DNA from: Fidelibacterota bacterium
Lineage (GTDB): Bacteria; Fidelibacterota; Marinisomatia; Marinisomatales; JABMOV01
Reading direction: 5' to 3'
NCBI GenBank assembly: GCA_046861395.1
Contig: JBHHUC010000065.1
Coordinates: 1-10,467, forward strand
Length of the DNA stretch: 10,467 nucleotides
A program made the translations under genes and the position numbers. Below are positions 104 to 10,467 of the stretch, piece after piece; the first letter of the stretch is position 1; every line of letters starts with the position of its first letter. The notes beneath the pieces were generated by a model. The model was not told the origin of the DNA, searched no databases, and saw nothing but the letters and a program-made list of their open reading frames with translations.

Positions 104-358
104 TTACCACAGACCTTTTTCCGTAAGAAATTCCCGTAACCACTGATTGCCTTTTCCGTGTTTGAGGTAGGTTTCTCTTTTTATTGCCTCAGAGCGGGAG
201 TGAAATATTTCGGTATAGATCAGAGAGTAGGGCCGATGCGCTTTGGTAGAGCGAACTTTCCCATTATTGTGTGCTCGTAGTCTGTCTGAGAGTGATTGCG
301 TTTGTCCAATGTAGTGGAAATGATCTACTTGGGACTTCAGTACATACACATATATCAT
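104..358 (-). CDS. Small stand-alone GIY-YIG nuclease family protein, 84 aa
   Basis: MIYVYVL...HYIGQT...DRLRAHN...EAIKRE carries the YVY/YIG motif pair and the conserved Arg, His and Glu. The start is moved from 403 to the ATG at 358 because the upstream part overlaps the tRNA. Confidence 0.9.
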   Translation of the reverse strand: MIYVYVLKSQVDHFHYIGQTQSLSDRLRAHNNGKVRSTKAHRPYSLIYTEIFHSRSEAIKRETYLKHGKGNQWLREFLTEKGLW

Positions 359-359
359 G

Positions 360-446
360 CGGAGGGGGAGGGATTTGAACCCCCGGTCCGCGCAAACGGA
401 CAACGGTTTTCAAGACCGCCGCATTAAGCCGCTCTGCCACCCCTCC
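360..446 (-). tRNA. tRNA-Ser, anticodon TGA
   Basis: Reverse complement reads GGAGGGGTGGCAGAGCGGCTTAATGCG-GCGGT CT TGA AA ACCGT, long variable arm, GGTTCAAATCC T arm, CCCCTCC-G. CCA is not encoded. Confidence 0.96.
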
Positions 447-2545: not shown

Positions 2546-4228
2546 ATGACGGAAAAAGATTCAGATACATCCAAAACGCGACACTTTATTGATGCCATAA
2601 TTCAGGAAGATCTGGCATCCGGGAAGCATACGTCCATCGCCACCCGGTTCCCTCCCGAACCCAATGGCTATCTCCATATCGGTCACGCGATATCCATCTG
2701 TATGAATTTTGGATTGGCCGAACAATACGGCGGAACCTGTAATTTGCGTTTTGACGACACCAACCCGGTGAAGGAAGAAGACGAATATGTCGATGCCATC
2801 AAGGAAGACGTGCGTTGGCTGGGTTATGATTGGGGCGACCGACTGTACTTCGCGTCAGACTATTTCGAACGAATGTACAACTTGGCACTGGATCTGATAA
2901 AAAAAAGGAAAGCCTATGTATGCGATCTGACGCCGGACCAGATTCGGGATTATCGCGGTACACTGACAAAACCGGGGAAGGAGAGTCCTTACCGCAACCG
3001 GTCGGTGGAAGAAAATCTTGATCTTTTCATTCGCATGAAGAATGGAGAATTTCCGGACGGCAGTCGTACTCTCCGGGCTAAGATTGATATGCAGGCTTCC
3101 AATCTCAACTTGCGTGATCCCATTATTTATCGCATTCTCCATGCTCCCCACCACAGAACAGGAGATACTTGGTGCATTTATCCCATGTATGATTGGGCTC
3201 ACGGACTTGAAGATTCGATCGAAAAAATCACTCATTCACTCTGTACGCTGGAATTCGAAGATCATCGACCCCTGTATGATTGGTTCCTGGAGCAATTGGA
3301 CGTATACCATCCCCGGCAAATTGAATTTGCCCGTTTGAATGTGAGTTATACCGTCACCAGCAAACGTAAACTCGTGCAGTTGGTGAATGAGGGCATTGTT
3401 CAGGGCTGGGATGATCCCCGCTTGCCCACCATTATCGGTATGCGCCGTCGCGGGTATCCGCCGGAGGCCATTCGTTTGTTTTCAGACAAGGTGGGCATTG
3501 CCAAGCGGGACTCCATCACCGATATGGCTTTATTGGAATATTGTGTACGAGATGTTCTCAATCGCACGGTGCGCCGGGTGATGGGTGTATTGAATCCACT
3601 CAAAGTGGTCATTACCAATTATCCTGAGAAGGAGATCGAATACCTGGAAGCCATTAACAGCCCGGAAGATTCGAATATGGGCACACGTCAGGTCCCGTTT
3701 GCAAGGGAAATATATATTGAACGGGAAGATTTTATGGAAGACCCGCCGCGGAAATATTTCCGACTTGCGCCGGGACGTGAAGTCCGGCTCCGCTATGCTT
3801 ATTTCATCACCTGTGAAGAAGTGGTAAAGGATGAGCAAGGAAATATCCTGGAGCTGCACTGTACCTATGACCCGGCCACACGTGGCGGATCTGCACCGGA
3901 TGGACGAAAAGTGAAAGGAACAATTCACTGGGTGGCCGGTCCCACAGCCTGCCGGGCCACAGTGCGGTTATACGATCGGCTGTTTACGGTTGAACAACCA
4001 GGCTCCGGGGGAGAGGACTTCCGGGACAATATTCATCCGGAATCACTGGTTGTATTGCAGGATTGTCTGGTGGAACCGGAAGTGAAGACGTTTGCGCCGG
4101 AAACCCGCTTCCAGTTTGAACGAAAAGGGTATTTTTGCATTGATCGCAGGGACAGCACACCGGAGTCTCTTGTCATTAATCGAACTGTAACCTTACGTGA
4201 TACTTGGTCCCGGAAGGCGCGATCGTAA
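2546..4228 (+). CDS. glnS: Glutamine--tRNA ligase
   Basis: [71 protein letters not shown] and FQFERKGYF. An alternative start exists at 2534. Confidence 0.97.
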
Positions 4229-4273
4229 AAATTGGTTTTGAGAAACAGGGAAAAACAGGTAATTTGGATTGAT

Positions 4274-5575
4274 ATGAAGGTGACCAAAGCAGGACTATTT
4301 CTGGTTTTACTTTTCCTCTTTACAGGTGTCTGGTCGAATCCTGCCGCATCACCGCGGGTAAATTTATACCTGATAAAATTTGATAATCTTAAAAATGAAG
4401 AAAGCATCAATTGGCTTTCCAGTGCCTTCCCGGACATGCTCAGGGAATACTTTAAGGGAAATCATCAGGTGGCGACCCGCAACAATGAAGACCTGGAAAC
4501 AATTATGTCCAATCGCAATCTGCTTCTCCATCAACCGCGGGGGACGAAGAATTTCCTTGTACTGGGGAAATTCGAGCGGCAACTGGATGAAATTTCAATC
4601 ACGATCCAATTAATCAATATTGCCAACTGGGAGGAAATCGGATCCCGGAAGATTGCCGGACTGTATACGGCAATTCCCGATATTAATAAAGAGATCACGG
4701 AAAATATTGAATCAATGATTCAACCCTTTATTCCGAATGTTACCGCGAAAAAATATCCGGAATTCTCTGAACCGGAACCTTACCGGCCGAAGCGCGATTT
4801 TTCCGAATCATCCCGGGATTTGACATCATCCATCGATAAGGCCATCGATGAATTGGAAATAAGCTTGGATATGGCTTCCGGCGCACGGGGAAAACCGGAT
4901 GAACATGATCCGGCCTCCGAAGGAGAGTGGGTCATGGATCTGAATGTGGATAATGAAATTGAGAAAAATCCGGAAAACGACGCCAATACGGAAATGCTGG
5001 AAACCGTCATCAGAACCCTGACCGACAGTCCCTACAATGTCAGCATGAAACGACCCCAGTTTGAGTACGATCGGGAGGACGATTCGAAAATGCAAGTGAT
5101 TTTCCCGGTAACTTATACCCTGAAAGAAAATATTATTAAAGATATGTTGGTGTCGTTGCCCTATTCCGGTCTGCAGCAGGACGGTAGTTTGACTATTTTC
5201 TATTTTAATCGGGACAAATTTAATTTTCCCGACCGGCTCATTCATCTTATCCAGAAGCAGCAGTATCGGGCGGTTCCCGTGATTCAGTTCACTGATAAAT
5301 CCGGGAATCCGAAAGTCGTAATTGTGGACAGTCCCGACACGGGTGCGATGAAACGGGAGAGTCAACGGGTACAATATATTCCCGTCCATCGCTTTTCACC
5401 CCTGATCGATTTCACCCTGGGCGGCTGGTCACTGCAGATTGCCATGGAGACGGTTGAAATTCCGGTGGAATACCGTTTCAATATGGACATCAAAGATGTG
5501 GACGGCCTGGAACGGGTTCGTCTTAAATTTGTTCCGGAAGCCGAACTGGATGCCTTTTTAGATAACATTTTATAA
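4274..5575 (+). CDS. Exported hypothetical protein with an N-terminal TolB-N/CsgG/FlgO-like domain
   Basis: Signal peptide MKVTKAGLFLVLLFLFTGVWS, then the pattern FDN...WLSSAFPDML...LVLGKF...ITIQLINI typical of TolB-N-like domains, an acidic linker and an unrecognised C-terminal part. Confidence 0.6.
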   Translation: MKVTKAGLFLVLLFLFTGVWSNPAASPRVNLYLIKFDNLKNEESINWLSSAFPDMLREYFKGNHQVATRNNEDLETIMSNRNLLLHQPRGTKNFLVLGKFERQLDEISITIQLINIANWEEIGSRKIAGLYTAIPDINKEITENIESMIQPFIPNVTAKKYPEFSEPEPYRPKRDFSESSRDLTSSIDKAIDELEISLDMASGARGKPDEHDPASEGEWVMDLNVDNEIEKNPENDANTEMLETVIRTLTDSPYNVSMKRPQFEYDREDDSKMQVIFPVTYTLKENIIKDMLVSLPYSGLQQDGSLTIFYFNRDKFNFPDRLIHLIQKQQYRAVPVIQFTDKSGNPKVVIVDSPDTGAMKRESQRVQYIPVHRFSPLIDFTLGGWSLQIAMETVEIPVEYRFNMDIKDVDGLERVRLKFVPEAELDAFLDNIL

Positions 5576-5589
5576 CCCGGGTTTATCAA

Positions 5590-6078
5590 ATGAAACGATG
5601 GCTGATATTCTTCTCCCTTTTTCATATTGGTTTATTTTCCCAAACGACCCAAGTCGCCCCCAATGTAACATTAACATTGCTGGACGGTAAAAAAGTCCAG
5701 TTAAAGGATATAGCCAGCCAGGGTCCGGTGGTAGTCGATTTTTGGGCGACCTGGTGCGAACCGTGTAAGAAAGAAATGGTTCAACTGGAAAAAATATATA
5801 AAAAGTACAAGGAACAGGGACTGACCATTCTTGCCATCAGCCAGGATTCGCCGAGAAGTCTGGCCAAGGTAAAACCGTATATCCGGTCAAAACGCTTTAC
5901 TTACCAGGTGGCGCGAGATCCCAACCAGCAAGTGGGGAAAAAGTTTAATGTACAGTTACTGCCCACGACATTTATCGTCAATTCCGGGATGGAAATTGTC
6001 TGGACCCACCAGGGCTATATTCCAGGGGATGAAAAAAAACTGGAAACGATAATCCTGGGACTGTTGGGTGATGAATAA
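5590..6078 (+). CDS. TlpA/ResA-family thiol:disulfide oxidoreductase, exported
   Basis: Signal peptide, VVVDFWATWCEPCKKEM active site and LLPTTFIV cis-Pro loop. Confidence 0.93.
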   Translation: MKRWLIFFSLFHIGLFSQTTQVAPNVTLTLLDGKKVQLKDIASQGPVVVDFWATWCEPCKKEMVQLEKIYKKYKEQGLTILAISQDSPRSLAKVKPYIRSKRFTYQVARDPNQQVGKKFNVQLLPTTFIVNSGMEIVWTHQGYIPGDEKKLETIILGLLGDE

Positions 6079-7870
6079 CCGGATTTTATATTTTATAGTC
6101 TGCTGTATCACCCTTTCCTTTCTGTCGGCACAAGTAACCGTTTCCGGCAGTGCCAATATTCGTTACGGGGAAGATAAGACCGGGTTCATTTATTCGGAGA
6201 AATTTTTTGACACTCAAATGCAGATCGGACCCTTGACTACCTGGTTTCAATGGGAATTCAGTAATCCTCCCGAAGTGGGGTTGCCCCATGCCGGTCTGCG
6301 AAAATTCCGGTTTGAGTATGAATCGGACCGGACCATGATAAAATACGGTGATCTCTATGAATTCTGGGGCCGGGGCCTGGTCCTGAATCAATTTGAAAAT
6401 CAGCAGATTGATATCGATAATTCCGTGACCGGGCTTTTCTTGTCCTCGCATCTGAAGGAACGCTGGGTCCTGGATATCATTTCAGGGCAGGGGAAGCTAT
6501 GGTATCAGGATGAACGGGTGAATAATCCGCCATATGATGAAAGACGACCCAATTACCGCCGGGAACACAGAGTCATCGGTTCTCGTCTGCATTATCAGGG
6601 GGACCGGTTCGATATGGGAGCAACCTATCTCCAGTCCAGGGAACGCCATCCCTACCCATCCGGAACTCCATTGGGTTCGGAAATGGATACACTGGCCCTG
6701 AAGCATCGATTAAATAGCCTATATGCCAACCTATACCTGCCATTCATGGATGTATCCCTGGAATATGCCGAAACACGCACGGCTGAGTTCATCCCGGACA
6801 GGGTGGCATTATTTCCCCGGGGTCGGGGTCAGTCCTTTTACGGGAGTGTCAATGCCTACCTGCCCCTTTTGACCGTATTTTTTGATTATAAGCGGTATGG
6901 TTTCGACTCGCGCATTCCCGATGAAGGTTCACCGGCCTATTATTATACCGGAGCCCTGGGTTTTCAAAGCCCGCCCATTGTTATCAAGGAACATACTTCC
7001 CAATTGTTGAACCGGATAACACACGTGACGGATATTGACAATGAAGTAGGTTACCAGGTCGAGATATCAGGACCCATTACCTCTGATCTGGTGGCCAATC
7101 TGAATTTCAGCCGTGCCAGCATGATCAATCGTTGGCAGCAGGAACGGCTGCAACCCTTTGGCTGGGAATGGAAGAAGAACGGGTCCGCCATATTTTGGCC
7201 GGTTCAGGATAAATCCGCCAAACCGTTTGGTGAAATTTATGCCGAAATAGAAGGGTATATTTCCGATCCCGTGCATGTGAAAATGGGCGCAGCGTATACC
7301 GAAGATATTCCGGAATTCATCGGCTATTCTATCACGGATACTACACGGGACCTGAATTATGTGACGCTCAAGGCCCACACCTACCCTCTGGCACTGGATA
7401 TTTCCTTTGCCGATCATTGGAACCTGGAAGTGAAATATGAACGCCAGATTCTGGAAAAAATGCGACGGTCGTCGGTTTCTATTCTTATGCCTGATACCAT
7501 TCAGTTGATTGATAACAGCTTTTCTTTGTTTGAAAACGGGGGGGCTCAAGATGGCTGGATTCTGAGTTTAGGGATCGGGCGGTCACCACAATGGTCGTTG
7601 AATATTCTCATCGATGCCATATCGACTCGGGAATTCGGAACCTATGAAGATTTCCAATTTGAAAATCCGATGGAAAAAATATTTGCCCGATTCATGGAAA
7701 TAGAGAATAAATGGATTTCGCTGGAATTTAGCGTGAATTTAACGGAAAGAACTCGGTTCCAGGTCGCCTATGGATCGCTGCAGGGCGGTATTGTGTGTAC
7801 AAACGGAATCTGTCGTTTCATCGAACCATTCAACGACGGTTTTCAACTGTCACTTGTATCTCTGTTTTAA
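6071..7870 (+). CDS. Putative outer-membrane beta-barrel protein, DUF6029-like
   Basis: Signal peptide, GDLYEFWGRGLVL motif, alternating amphipathic strands, C-terminal GGIVCTNGICRF motif and terminal Phe. It overlaps the TlpA stop codon. The family name is from recognition, not a search. Confidence 0.7.
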   Translation: MNNRILYFIVCCITLSFLSAQVTVSGSANIRYGEDKTGFIYSEKFFDTQMQIGPLTTWFQWEFSNPPEVGLPHAGLRKFRFEYESDRTMIKYGDLYEFWGRGLVLNQFENQQIDIDNSVTGLFLSSHLKERWVLDIISGQGKLWYQDERVNNPPYDERRPNYRREHRVIGSRLHYQGDRFDMGATYLQSRERHPYPSGTPLGSEMDTLALKHRLNSLYANLYLPFMDVSLEYAETRTAEFIPDRVALFPRGRGQSFYGSVNAYLPLLTVFFDYKRYGFDSRIPDEGSPAYYYTGALGFQSPPIVIKEHTSQLLNRITHVTDIDNEVGYQVEISGPITSDLVANLNFSRASMINRWQQERLQPFGWEWKKNGSAIFWPVQDKSAKPFGEIYAEIEGYISDPVHVKMGAAYTEDIPEFIGYSITDTTRDLNYVTLKAHTYPLALDISFADHWNLEVKYERQILEKMRRSSVSILMPDTIQLIDNSFSLFENGGAQDGWILSLGIGRSPQWSLNILIDAISTREFGTYEDFQFENPMEKIFARFMEIENKWISLEFSVNLTERTRFQVAYGSLQGGIVCTNGICRFIEPFNDGFQLSLVSLF

Positions 7871-7882
7871 TCAACTGATTAC

Positions 7883-7911
7883 TTGTGAAATATTTTCCGT
7901 TGCTGTAATTT
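7883..7911 (+). promoter_or_regulatory. Putative sigma70 promoter upstream of selenoprotein 1
   Basis: TTGTGA (7883-7888), 17 nt, TAATTT (7906-7911) in an AT-rich intergenic gap. Confidence 0.35.
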
Positions 7912-7933
7912 GTCTGAGAAATTGGGGAACATT

Positions 7934-9409
7934 ATGAAAAAAACACTTTTGGCCGGTATCCTATTGGCAGGCGTGATTACGGCCCAGACCTATAATGTGG
8001 GTGACGTGGTGGCCAATTTTTCCGAAGCTATTTGCGCCAACGGAACAGGAGACTGGGTTCTGGATAATTATAATGGTGATCTCAATGGCGGTGATTACCA
8101 TGTGATTTGGATTAACCTGTTCACATCTTGGTGACCAAGCTGTCAATCGGAGGCTCCGATTACAGAAGGAATTTATCAGACTTATGCCGATCAGGGTTTA
8201 GTCATGGTGGCGGCCGGATTCGACTGGAATCAACCGTACAGTTGCGAAAGCTGGGCTCAAACTTTTGGTTTAAGTTATCCCATTACCGACGATGAATCCA
8301 ATCTGGTCTGGAATATGTTCGGTCAGGGGTATATTCCGCACAATGTTATTCTGGATCACAATTTTGAAGTATTGTACTCCGAAGCCGGATTCAGCCAGGG
8401 AACCATCATTGCGACGATTGAAGCGGCCCTTGCCAATCTGCCGGCAGATTTGGATGGGGACGGTATCCTCAATGATCTGGATAATTGTCCGGAAATCTAC
8501 AATCCTGATCAGGCCGATTTGGACAACGATGATATCGGTGACCTGTGTGATCCCTGTGATAATGCGAATGTCTTTGTCGCCGGGAATGTAACCGGGGATG
8601 TAACGGATGACGGGCCGGTTCTGGATGTTTTTGATGTCCTGACGCTGGTCGATCTGATCCTGGATAATGATTTCCCCGGCTGTACGGGAGAATCAGCCAA
8701 TTTCAACGGCGATAATTTTATTAATGTGCTGGATGTCGTTCAATTGGCCCAATACGTTACCGGTCTATATGGTCGCTATGCCCCCGTGGAACTATCCCAG
8801 GCGACGGTCACCATTGCCCGGGATGAAACTAAATCATCGCTTCTTATTGAGAGTCAAACAGGCATAGCAGGGTTCCAATTGGAAGTCAAAGGTCAGGAAC
8901 CAGCGTTTAACGGAATTTCCGATGCGAATCTTCCGGAGACCTGGATTCTTGATTACCGACAGGATGAAAATTCGCTTCAGATCCTGGGCGTGGATTTGAG
9001 TATGACGCAATTGACTCAATCCATTACGATTGGGATTTCCGGGGCCGAATCTGTTGGTCAAATCATCATCAGCGACCGGAATGGTAATGAAATTCCCGTT
9101 ACGATTAATACATCGGCGAACGGGCGACCCATTGAACTCCCGGCAGACGTTCGCTTGAATGAATTGTATCCCAATCCTTTTAATCCGGTAGTTTCGGTTC
9201 CTTTTTCCCTGCCGTTCCAAACGGATGTTACCATAGCCGTTTATAATCTGAATGGGCAGTTGGTGGATATCCTCCTTCAAGCCCAGGATATGGTAAGTGG
9301 TTTTCATGAAGTCCGGTGGGATGCCTCACGCCAGGCATCGGGAGTGTATATTGTTCAGATACAGACCCAACAGGGAATTGACACACAAAAGGCTTACCTC
9401 TTGAAATAA
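7934..9409 (+). CDS. Exported thioredoxin-fold (AhpC/TSA-redoxin-like) selenoprotein, 491 aa with Sec67, plus thrombospondin type 3-like, dockerin-like and T9SS/FlgD-type C-terminal domains
   Basis: ORFs 7910-8134 and 8204-9409 are in frame and separated only by TGA 8132-8134. Readthrough gives [16 protein letters not shown]. Signal peptide [23 protein letters not shown]...DNCP...DQAD repeat (about 8447-8560), dockerin-like motifs (about 8582-8764) and YPNPFNP at 9167. Confidence 0.88.
8141..8164 (+). promoter_or_regulatory. Putative bacterial SECIS hairpin, gene 1
   Basis: TGT-C-AATCGGA-GGC-TCCGATT-ACA, with 17 nt between the TGA and a G-starting loop. Confidence 0.75.
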
Positions 9410-9425
9410 GAAAGGTTTAGCTCTG

Positions 9426-9457
9426 AAAAAAAGCCCGGAATTTCCGGGCTTTTTTTT
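9426..9457. terminator. Intrinsic terminator, probably bidirectional
   Basis: AAAAAAAGCCCGGAA-T-TTCCGGGCTTTTTTTT perfect inverted repeat, 16 nt after the stop at 9409. Confidence 0.9.
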
Positions 9458-9517
9458 ATTATTGTCCAGCCGGCGACAGCATGAGGCTCCAACAGTCGGT
9501 AATTTCTGTAAAACGGA

Positions 9518-10327
9518 ATGATGAGAATGATAAGAAACCTGATCGGATTAATCCTTTTCTTCGGTGTCATGAGTGGGCAACCATACGTGGTCGGGGACGT
9601 TGTGGCGGATTTTCAGCAAACAATTTGTGAAAACGGCAATGGATCCTGGTCGCTTTATAACAGTACGGGGTTTGACGGTAACAGCAGCGGCCGCATTACA
9701 CTACTCATTTTTTTTGCTTCTTGGTGAATTACCTGTCAATCGGAGGCTCCGATTTTGGAAGGAATGCAACAACAATATGGCAATCAGGGGTTACAGGTTA
9801 TATCGTTGGGATCACAATGGAATCAGCCATATTCCTGTACATCCTGGGCCACGACGTTTGGTCTCACTTTTCCGATCCTGGACGATGATTCCTATTCGGT
9901 AGGCAGTCTTTTCAGCGTCAACGGTGTTCCGTTTACCGTTATCATCGATCATACCATGGTTTTACGTTACCGAGCTCTGGGCTTTAACCAAAGTGTCGTG
10001 GTGGCTACCATTGAAGATTTGTTGACCGAATTGGATGTATCCGAATCTGCGAGCGTGTTGTCTGAGAATTTCTCTCTCCGTCCAGCCTACCCCAATCCAT
10101 TTAATGCCAGTGTGACCATTCCCTTTACATTAACCCGGGAGGAGGATATGAGCGTCACCGTTCATGACATAACCGGTCGGGTCGTTGCCACTCTGGCGAA
10201 GGGGATGATGCCGGCCGGGGAACATGTCATACGGTGGTCACCTGTGGTGAGATCCACCGGTATTTACTTTATTTCCGTGGCATCCGGGACCCAGCATCTG
10301 GTATATAAGATAGTTCAGGTAAAATAA
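9518..10327 (+). CDS. Exported thioredoxin-fold selenoprotein, about 269 aa, with a T9SS/FlgD-type C-terminal domain; paralogue of 7934-9409
   Basis: ORFs 9518-9727 and 9755-10327 are in frame across TGA 9725-9727, giving LIFFASW-U-ITCQSEAP. Signal peptide present, WNQPYSC shared with gene 1, and YPNPFNA at 10088. The start could be 9518, 9521 or 9527. Confidence 0.87.
9734..9754 (+). promoter_or_regulatory. Putative bacterial SECIS hairpin, gene 2
   Basis: AATCGGA-GGC-TCCGATT at the same offset from the TGA as in gene 1. The 22 nt at 9733-9754 are identical to 8140-8161. Confidence 0.75.
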
Positions 10328-10417: not shown

Positions 10418-10467
10418 GCGCCCGTGGCTTAATTGGATAGAGCACCTGGCTACGGACCAGGGGATTG
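10418..10467 (+). tRNA. tRNA-Arg, anticodon ACG (truncated at window end)
   Basis: GCGCCCGTGGCTTAATTGGATAGAGCA-CCTGG CT ACG GA CCAGG, with the anticodon at 10452-10454. Confidence 0.92.

Follow-up and report, generated by a model that had tools for sequence, protein, structure and literature searches.

How can a thioredoxin-fold enzyme, whether it works through a thiol or a selenol, be kept reduced once it has been exported beyond the periplasm? The question is raised by four consecutive genes on contig JBHHUC010000065.1 (assembly GCA_046861395.1) of a Fidelibacterota bacterium; the contig, analysed over its full 10,467 nucleotides, is referred to here as the window. The initial annotation, made from the sequence alone, had described four exported proteins, each with a redox-type motif, encoded on the plus strand at 5590–10327. 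It suggested that electrons could pass from a periplasmic TlpA, through a Cys pair in an outer-membrane β-barrel, to two secreted redoxins with a selenocysteine (U) in a UxxC motif. The genes, motifs and coordinates are present as described:

5590–6078, plus strand: dedicated TlpA/ResA-like periplasmic reductase; WCEPC (C56, C59), cis-Pro loop P125
6007–6033, plus strand: TlpA subfamily motif HxGYxPGDE, residues 140–148, within the TlpA gene
6071–7870, plus strand (start GTG 6068 or ATG 6071): DUF6029 outer-membrane β-barrel, 599 residues, 24 strands
7784–7831, plus strand: barrel Cys hairpin GG-x-x-C-x4-C between strands 23 and 24; CTNGIC, C576 at nucleotide 7796 and C581 at nucleotide 7811
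7934–9409, plus strand: redoxin A, 491 residues; ResA-like WUPSC domain, TSP3 repeat, dockerin-like segment, type IX secretion system (T9SS) type A C-terminal domain
8132–8164, plus strand: predicted selenocysteine codon of redoxin A (TGA 8132–8134) and hairpin resembling a selenocysteine insertion sequence (SECIS; core 8145–8161)
9518–10327, plus strand: redoxin B, 269 residues; WUITC domain joined directly to a T9SS C-terminal domain
9725–9757, plus strand: predicted selenocysteine codon of redoxin B (TGA 9725–9727) and SECIS-like hairpin (core 9738–9754)

All four genes end in TAA, and the N-termini of their products, judged by eye, resemble signal peptides followed by Gln. Genetic evidence makes the partnership between this TlpA and the barrel near-certain, and the two form a real, conserved redox unit whose exported clients, thiol or selenol, can replace one another. 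The best reading of the cassette, and a reasonably probable one, is a thiol–disulfide relay across the outer membrane, from DsbD to TlpA, to the barrel hairpin and on to a surface redoxin.

Linkage and fusion of TlpA and the barrel

Matches to PF19494 occur in 103 of 201 genomes of the phylum. From 76 genomes, 80 loci were fetched, hand-chosen for spread and flank, and 80 of 314 metagenome loci were sampled; the count of evaluable genome loci includes the window and excludes one locus at a contig edge. A contig scan with the single barrel as query gave one weak, unrelated match, and neighborhoods were taken from the genome search. TlpA lies directly upstream of the barrel in all 80 evaluable genome loci and in 67 of 67 metagenome loci. 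With cut-offs set beforehand, the 105 of 201 genomes that have the barrel are also those that have this TlpA subfamily, and several families include members lacking the pair, a pattern to be read with the caveat that adjacent genes are lost jointly in deletions and broken assemblies and that kin are not independent. Conserved co-occurrence, which had been put forward as a check on the proposed pathway, is thus close to absolute for TlpA and the barrel. In the Atlas, the proteins of greatest similarity to the barrel belong to clusters in which Fidelibacterota is the most frequent phylum, and a plasmid search found no match. A second TlpA lies further on at loci L029, L116, L126 and L146–L148, which suggests a second cassette there.

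The two proteins are also found as one chain. Fourteen TlpA–DUF6029 fusions were present among the 120 listed of 280 long TlpA-profile matches; they are 43–86% identical to each other, and their TlpA-profile domains score 134–160 bits, against at most 114 bits for the rest of the listed matches. All 14 keep WATWCVPC, GYSxGDE and Cx4C, and the linker from TlpA to the first strand is, by eye, approximately 10–15 residues long. Fusion of TlpA just before the first strand places it at the periplasmic mouth of the barrel, independently of the complex model described below. Among structural neighbors in the Atlas, a 59-member cluster, whose commonest phylum is Krumholzibacteriota, likewise combines Redoxin and DUF6029 in one chain. 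No fusion of a barrel to a client redoxin was seen among the long matches listed, a search made by TlpA profile only. The 14 fusions (P0188–P0201) carry the source label 'peroxiredoxin'.

The window TlpA scores 92.9 bits against AhpC-TSA and 86.2 against Redoxin in Pfam, and its best PDB matches are ResA and 2m72. It has no Por_Secre_tail match in Pfam, in keeping with its earlier description as lacking a C-terminal sorting domain. Because its scores fall under the equivalog cut-offs for ResA (106.7 of 170) and likewise for rhizobial TlpA, it is assigned to a separate subfamily. Residues C56, P58, C59 and P125 are invariant in 72 barrel-linked TlpAs, and the motif G[YF]xxG[DE]E, located in the complex model on the face that contacts the barrel, is found in 68 of these 72 versus none of 11 other thioredoxin-fold segments of the same genome. 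The active site of linked TlpAs reads CEPC, CAPC or CVPC, which are the motifs of the low-potential reductases ResA and TlpA.

Barrel anatomy and the modeled complex

The barrel passes PF19494 (DUF6029) with 73.1 bits (cut-off 27). In a first AlphaFold2 model, from 20 sequences, the predicted local distance difference test (pLDDT) of the hairpin was below 50; an alignment of 150 sequences mended the hairpin and gave a model with pLDDT 94.9 and a predicted TM-score of 0.90. Twenty-four strands are counted; their connections are short turns at one end of the barrel and long loops at the opposite end, and the first strand begins at residue 22 with no N-terminal plug domain. By the topology rule for barrels, the long-loop side faces outside, and this orientation fits with the acidic Asp-Gly repeats, probably calcium-binding, that are inserted on that side in some homologues. 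Barrels P0018–P0027, P0030 and L047 carry acidic DxDxDG repeat insertions of approximately 150 residues in an outer loop. In the model, conserved loops 93–121 and 299–327 fold inward, and the Cys pair forms a β-hairpin in the last long loop.

Only seven positions are invariant over 150 barrel homologues of 19–78% identity, and four of these are G568, G573, C576 and C581. The Cx4C motif is present in all 150, with its spacing constant at 4, and 119 have no further Cys after residue 30. The remaining conservation is concentrated in loops 62–75, 93–121 and 299–327. The C576/C581 hairpin is proposed to be the relay dithiol. Apparent cases of selenocysteine in the barrel were rejected as upstream stops.

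Structure comparison highlights the usher pores FimD (Z 17.4, RMSD 4.3, 362 aligned residues) and PapC (Z 16.2) as the best matches. Foldseek and VIA searches returned generic barrels only, at approximately 10% identity (7–11%), and a PDB profile search found no solved member of the DUF6029 family (spurious RecA matches only). Complex modeling of the barrel with TlpA, suggested in the initial annotation, gave a score of 0.86 in three runs, versus 0.24 for the best of three controls. Of 157 solved pairs, 116 reach the mark set for such models, as do 2 of 215 mismatched ones; these figures are only rough for models built on our own alignments. At least 95% of contacts are shared between the runs, with a partner pLDDT of at least 86, and the lack of any solved barrel relative in the profile search makes it unlikely that the score reflects memorized structures. 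The model supports binding of TlpA to the barrel, without proving it; a physical pair is considered highly likely.

In the model TlpA is seated in the periplasmic mouth of the barrel with its active-site face buried (44 strand contacts, all 0–7 residues from the periplasmic end and spread over 21 of the 24 strands). The non-strand contacts involve turns, loops 96–109 and 300–309, and the Cys hairpin. Hairpin residues 574, 576 and 578–582 touch TlpA, and the hairpin would therefore dip into the lumen, reachable from the periplasm. Both barrel cysteines lie in the interface, so that the buried and inaccessible disulfide raised earlier as an objection to the pathway is not what the model predicts. 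The contact residues of TlpA include 53–61 (WCEPC), 122–125 and 138–147, the usual substrate face of thioredoxins, and residues 122–123 and 141–142 sit under strands 24 and 23, at the base of the hairpin. Redox exchange between TlpA and the barrel hairpin is viewed as likely.

All the evidence on TlpA and the barrel would fit equally well with a redox-gated or metal-binding channel, in which TlpA keeps the barrel cysteines reduced for a solute (copper, selenium or thiol compounds) and the clients stand beside the barrel without being reduced through it. TlpA/ResA proteins do keep metal-binding Cys motifs reduced, and Foldseek lists metal or cofactor transporters such as OprC, although as generic barrels at 7–11% identity. 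However, the barrel has no plug of the TonB-dependent type, its strands starting at residue 22, and the frequent neighbors include no conserved transporter genes (by eye). A channel would also leave unexplained the thioredoxin-fold client, drawn from two families, in 70 of 77 loci, and is thought unlikely.

Exported clients and selenocysteine

A C/UxxC thioredoxin-fold gene lies directly downstream of the barrel in those 70 of the 77 genome loci with enough flank and in 51 of 51 metagenome loci; a client is encoded somewhere in the cassette at 74 of the 77. Because the client profiles were seeded from genome loci, the genome count is in part circular; no metagenome locus served as a seed, although the taxa overlap. 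The 70 first clients comprise 48 of Omp28/GOS_C type and 22 of redoxin A/B type, 40 with U and 30 with C, so that selenium is an optional client feature, and relatives carry Omp28/GOS_C-type proteins or lipoproteins in the client slot. The pathway first suggested is supported in part, by the co-occurrence, by the modeled accessibility of the cysteines and by natural fusions; its redoxins are replaceable clients and not fixed parts.

In genomes where no barrel was found, clients proved scarce. Omp28 was found in none of 30, versus 6 of 10 barrel genomes, with a model that missed four genomes with a known client; a redoxin-B query at E ≤ 1e-12 matched 3 of 30 (all weaker than 1e-17) versus 9 of 10. 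Arrays of three to five U/CxxC clients stand beside one barrel at L029, L049, L053, L056 and L100. In the genomes of L172 and L173 the cassette client is a Cys lipoprotein, and unlinked UxxC proteins with an Omp28 domain are encoded elsewhere.

Redoxins A and B are 42% identical over 196 residues and share an extra Cys pair (C34/C104 in A, C37/C107 in B; 7934–8250 and 9518–9840), probably a structural disulfide. The TSP_3 (24.2 bits) and Dockerin (15.8 bits) matches of redoxin A are under their cut-offs. Against NF045500, redoxin A scores 116.4 bits (cut-off 200) through its tail only (TSP3/dockerin, residues 158–275), redoxin B has no match, and PF11551 was not found in this genome.

In both redoxins TGA, predicted to encode U67 in A and U70 in B, occupies the first Cys position of the Redoxin/AhpC-TSA domain, the domain continues on both sides, and an identical 17-nucleotide hairpin lies 3' of the codon. 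The genome encodes selA, selB and selD over cut-off, selD itself being TGA-bearing, as well as tRNA-Sec. Domain continuity, this machinery and the identical hairpin indicate that read-through is more than chance, and selenocysteine decoding of the predicted UxxC redoxins is well supported at the level of sequence. TGA read as a stop or as Trp was rejected: it aligns with Cys, the other Trp codons are TGG, and among the 1057 long frames of the genome 412 end in TGA.

Comparison across the phylum agrees with this decoding. A SECIS-like stem with 4 or more base pairs, at a constant distance from the codon, is found at 39 of 57 client TGA sites, versus a mean of 11.6 and a maximum of 21 in 1000 synonymous shuffles, and in 2 of 28 Cys forms, with an offset window that was picked after seeing the data and sequences that are related. 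The folding energy of the two window SECIS stretches alone is not beyond that of shuffles (z −0.97 and −0.61). Of 76 barrel genomes searched, 70 have selA, and the six without it, all from one genus, use Cys clients, with TSTTC where seven loci of selA genomes have TS[TS]TUGPC. A close Cys form of a client, WCVPC, occurs at L027. The genus in question (g4: G024, G035, G043, G071, G168 and G176) has genomes of approximately 1 Mb in which selA is absent but TlpA and the barrel persist together with SprA and a lipoprotein client of the Cys form, and in G024 also DsbD; the TlpA–barrel pair is missing in 5 of 13 genomes of g4.

Both redoxins pass Por_Secre_tail in Pfam (PF18962; 42.7 bits for A and 36.6 for B, cut-off 27), confirming the sorting-type domains noted originally, and TIGR04183 is above cut-off for both. 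SprA, PorV and PorU are over cut-off in this genome; GldM and GldN had no match in searches without a positive control, and the T9SS here possibly lacks its usual motor. All but two of the 201 genomes (199) have SprA. The barrel as a core T9SS part was excluded, given 96 genomes with SprA-level coverage and no barrel. The genome studied (G000) has ten PorV-family matches over cut-off and approximately 45 C-terminal-domain proteins, on several contigs. Outside the cassette, on contig C65 of G000 at approximately 3000–5000 of the plus strand, lies a third TGA-split redoxin (WUPVC), which combines a long stretch of N-terminal repeats with a T9SS tail; WUPVC proteins adjoin the barrel at L054, L064, L067 and L070, and this redoxin may be a dispersed client.

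The nearest folds of the barrel, FimD and PapC, together with the absence of a T9SS tail from many clients, would suit an export or maturation portal, in which the usher-sized barrel passes or matures its clients (chiefly those that are lipoproteins), with a single reduction of their active site by TlpA on the way. However, a T9SS tail is carried by 35 of the 70 first clients, SprA is retained by the 96 barrel-less genomes, and in the model the lumen is filled by conserved loops and TlpA. One-off reduction would, moreover, be insufficient to sustain a catalytic selenol, and such a portal is judged quite unlikely. Since the surface location of the clients is inferred, and since GldM and GldN were not found in searches without a positive control, a system confined to the periplasm must also be considered, with TlpA reducing the clients directly and the barrel serving as a scaffold whose disulfide is structural. 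Against it stand the modeled turning of the TlpA active-site face into the barrel, the T9SS tails above cut-off with SprA, PorV and PorU present, and an invariant two-Cys hairpin with a dedicated and sometimes fused reductase, for which a structural role would be difficult to explain. Its probability is put as low.

Two further features of the window complete the locus:

4232–5575, plus strand: exported protein upstream of TlpA with a FlgO/CsgG/TolB-N-like N-terminal domain; frequent non-core neighbor
9424–9458, no strand assigned: stem resembling a terminator, with A- and T-tracts, lying between the genes of redoxins A and B; 16 pairs, 6 of them G–C

The upstream protein has a homologue in 37 of 81 loci and no Pfam or NCBIfam match above cut-off; its Atlas features are FlgO/CsgG-like, with a poor model. 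Terminator-like sites in the scan overall show no excess (10 versus 7.5 in shuffles), and a promoter scan gave no excess above shuffles. In the stretches 1–403 and 359–547, a small GIY-YIG-like open reading frame (104–403, minus strand, by eye) lies below two tRNA-Ser genes, and bases 1–50 are repeated at 322–371. At 10418–10467 the start of a tRNA-Arg(ACG)-like gene is truncated by the contig end (by eye; ARAGORN made no call).

The proposed relay and its precedents

Taken together, the TlpA–barrel evidence, the clients from two different families and the presence of DsbD, SprA, PorV and PorU favor the relay. Its first step is borrowed from the known DsbD pathway: inner-membrane DsbD would reduce TlpA, directly or via a soluble carrier. 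DsbD is encoded in this genome and in six of six genomes sampled, and its N-domain in this genome has a Cx4C with the same spacing as the barrel hairpin. As modeled, TlpA would then insert its active-site face into the barrel from the periplasmic side and reduce the C576–C581 disulfide in the lumen. The hairpin, hinged on its conserved glycines, may next offer its dithiol to the outer vestibule, where an exported thioredoxin-fold client would dock and have its U/CxxC re-reduced, the clients here being the two T9SS-tagged UxxC selenoproteins. Such onward transfer from the hairpin to surface clients seems fairly probable. Finally, the clients may reduce extracellular disulfides or oxidized surface proteins. 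The hairpin would thus play a part like that of the DsbD N-domain, linking two thioredoxin folds through a dithiol that is not itself of thioredoxin type.

Several observations weigh against this relay. No Cys–Cys pair between TlpA and the barrel is among the 25 best-defined pairs listed for the complex, and paired covariation (mutual information) over 70 TlpA–barrel pairs does not enrich the interface (0 of the top 25 and 8 of the top 100, with 6% expected). A fused TlpA, tethered by a short linker, cannot easily reach inner-membrane DsbD, which raises a problem for the first step, and no stand-alone DsbD_N that might recharge a tethered TlpA was matched in this genome. On the client side, none was found near the barrel at 3 of 77 loci (L017, L022 and L081), and 24 of 70 first clients are lipoprotein-like by a rough pattern, lack a T9SS tail and could face the periplasm. 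A redoxin-like match with a TGA was also obtained in G091, an assembly of 110 contigs in which no barrel was found. Given the stem at 9424–9458, redoxin B may form a separate transcription unit.

Outward flow of electrons is the direction proposed here. In a reverse relay, the surface selenoproteins would be oxidases or would draw electrons from external thiols, with inward transfer through the barrel. In its favor, HBP35, a surface thioredoxin-fold T9SS cargo of Porphyromonas gingivalis, reportedly complements Escherichia coli dsbA, yet the same protein reduces insulin in vitro (both in passages of PMC2907840). One client also has a weak DUF1223-like match. Because the CxPC motifs of the linked TlpAs are of the low-potential reductase type, reverse flow is considered highly improbable.

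A literature search, which misses most subscription journals, found no publication on the TlpA–barrel system, and the available passages of PMC7712824 and PMC12152298 describe no TlpA–barrel relay. The only publication found to name DUF6029 (PMC9603273) proposes, in the part available, a β-barrel polysaccharide porin from the HHpred likeness of Wzi-barrel matches; among the frequent neighbor clusters here no polysaccharide-export gene is evident (by eye). TonB-dependent transporters have 22 strands and an N-terminal plug, whereas this barrel has 24 strands and starts at residue 22. Fimbrial ushers have a plug, N- and C-terminal periplasmic domains and chaperone or pilin genes; only strand number and fold agree with them, at 9–11% identity, and the barrel model has no room for the extra usher domains.

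For the clients, precedents are closer. GOS_C proteins were predicted as marine UxxC thioredoxin-fold selenoproteins (Zhang and Gladyshev 2008, PMC2398784), and the accessible passages of that paper give no electron source for them. An Omp28-type client fills the same gene slot at 48 of 70 loci; one such client scored 183 bits against the Omp28-related selenoprotein family NF045500 (cut-off 200), and redoxins A and B differ by their ResA-like catalytic domain. HBP35, a T9SS cargo located at the surface, is active as a thioredoxin, and the passages on it name no source of reductant (PMC2907840). In the same organism, PG2175 is listed as a periplasmic thioredoxin-domain protein, PG2173 as Omp28 and PG2172 as PorA (excerpts of PMC13744359), with PG2174 described as an uncharacterized vesicle protein (excerpts of PMC4335976); the passages of the PorA literature seen say nothing of neighboring genes. 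A relay would explain how such surface thioredoxin-fold enzymes, and the marine UxxC selenoproteins predicted in 2008, are kept reduced outside, and, if true, would give a function to a widespread domain of unknown function. It is interesting to speculate, in a proposal leaning slightly towards probable, that DUF6029 barrels are an outer-membrane counterpart of DsbD, plugged by TlpA and with a swinging Cys hairpin that serves any surface thioredoxin-fold protein. They would sustain a cell-surface selenoproteome in marine Fidelibacterota (Marinimicrobia) and provide the missing reductant source for Omp28/HBP35-like proteins in Bacteroidota. The relay is directly testable, as the model points to specific residues, and versions with Cys throughout or with TlpA and barrel in one chain are at hand for expression and structural studies.

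The pathways from DsbD/CcdA to TlpA, ResA and CcmG likewise use a TlpA/ResA-type reductase to feed exported redox enzymes, and a comparable system is CcdA-Etrx-MsrAB2 of Streptococcus pneumoniae (PMC3914529, in part). These cross only the inner or single membrane via helical proteins, whereas the relay pair here would lie in an outer-membrane β-barrel. Exchange among thioredoxin folds as a rule runs via a dithiol of another type; in nDsbD, C103–C109 is a non-thioredoxin Cys pair that bridges thioredoxin folds (PMC3137068, in part); no homology of the barrel to DsbD was detected, and the shared Cx4C spacing is an analogy. The parts of the cassette belong to named families, and a trans-outer-membrane disulfide relay would, if true, be categorically new. 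To our knowledge, no thiol–disulfide relay extends beyond the periplasm, and the electron conduits described in outer membranes are haem-based. Among the latter, MtrAB (PDB entry 6r2q) has a large barrel that holds a periplasm-side redox protein and passes electrons to a surface partner. The match of MtrB to the DUF6029 barrel (Z 14.4, RMSD 5.3, 401 aligned residues, 10% identity) is a generic barrel likeness; in contrast to MtrAB, the cassette has a barrel of 24 strands and a proposed two-electron thiol exchange, and CxxCH is absent from all four proteins. In layout the cassette resembles MtrAB and in chemistry DsbD, and it is a member of neither.

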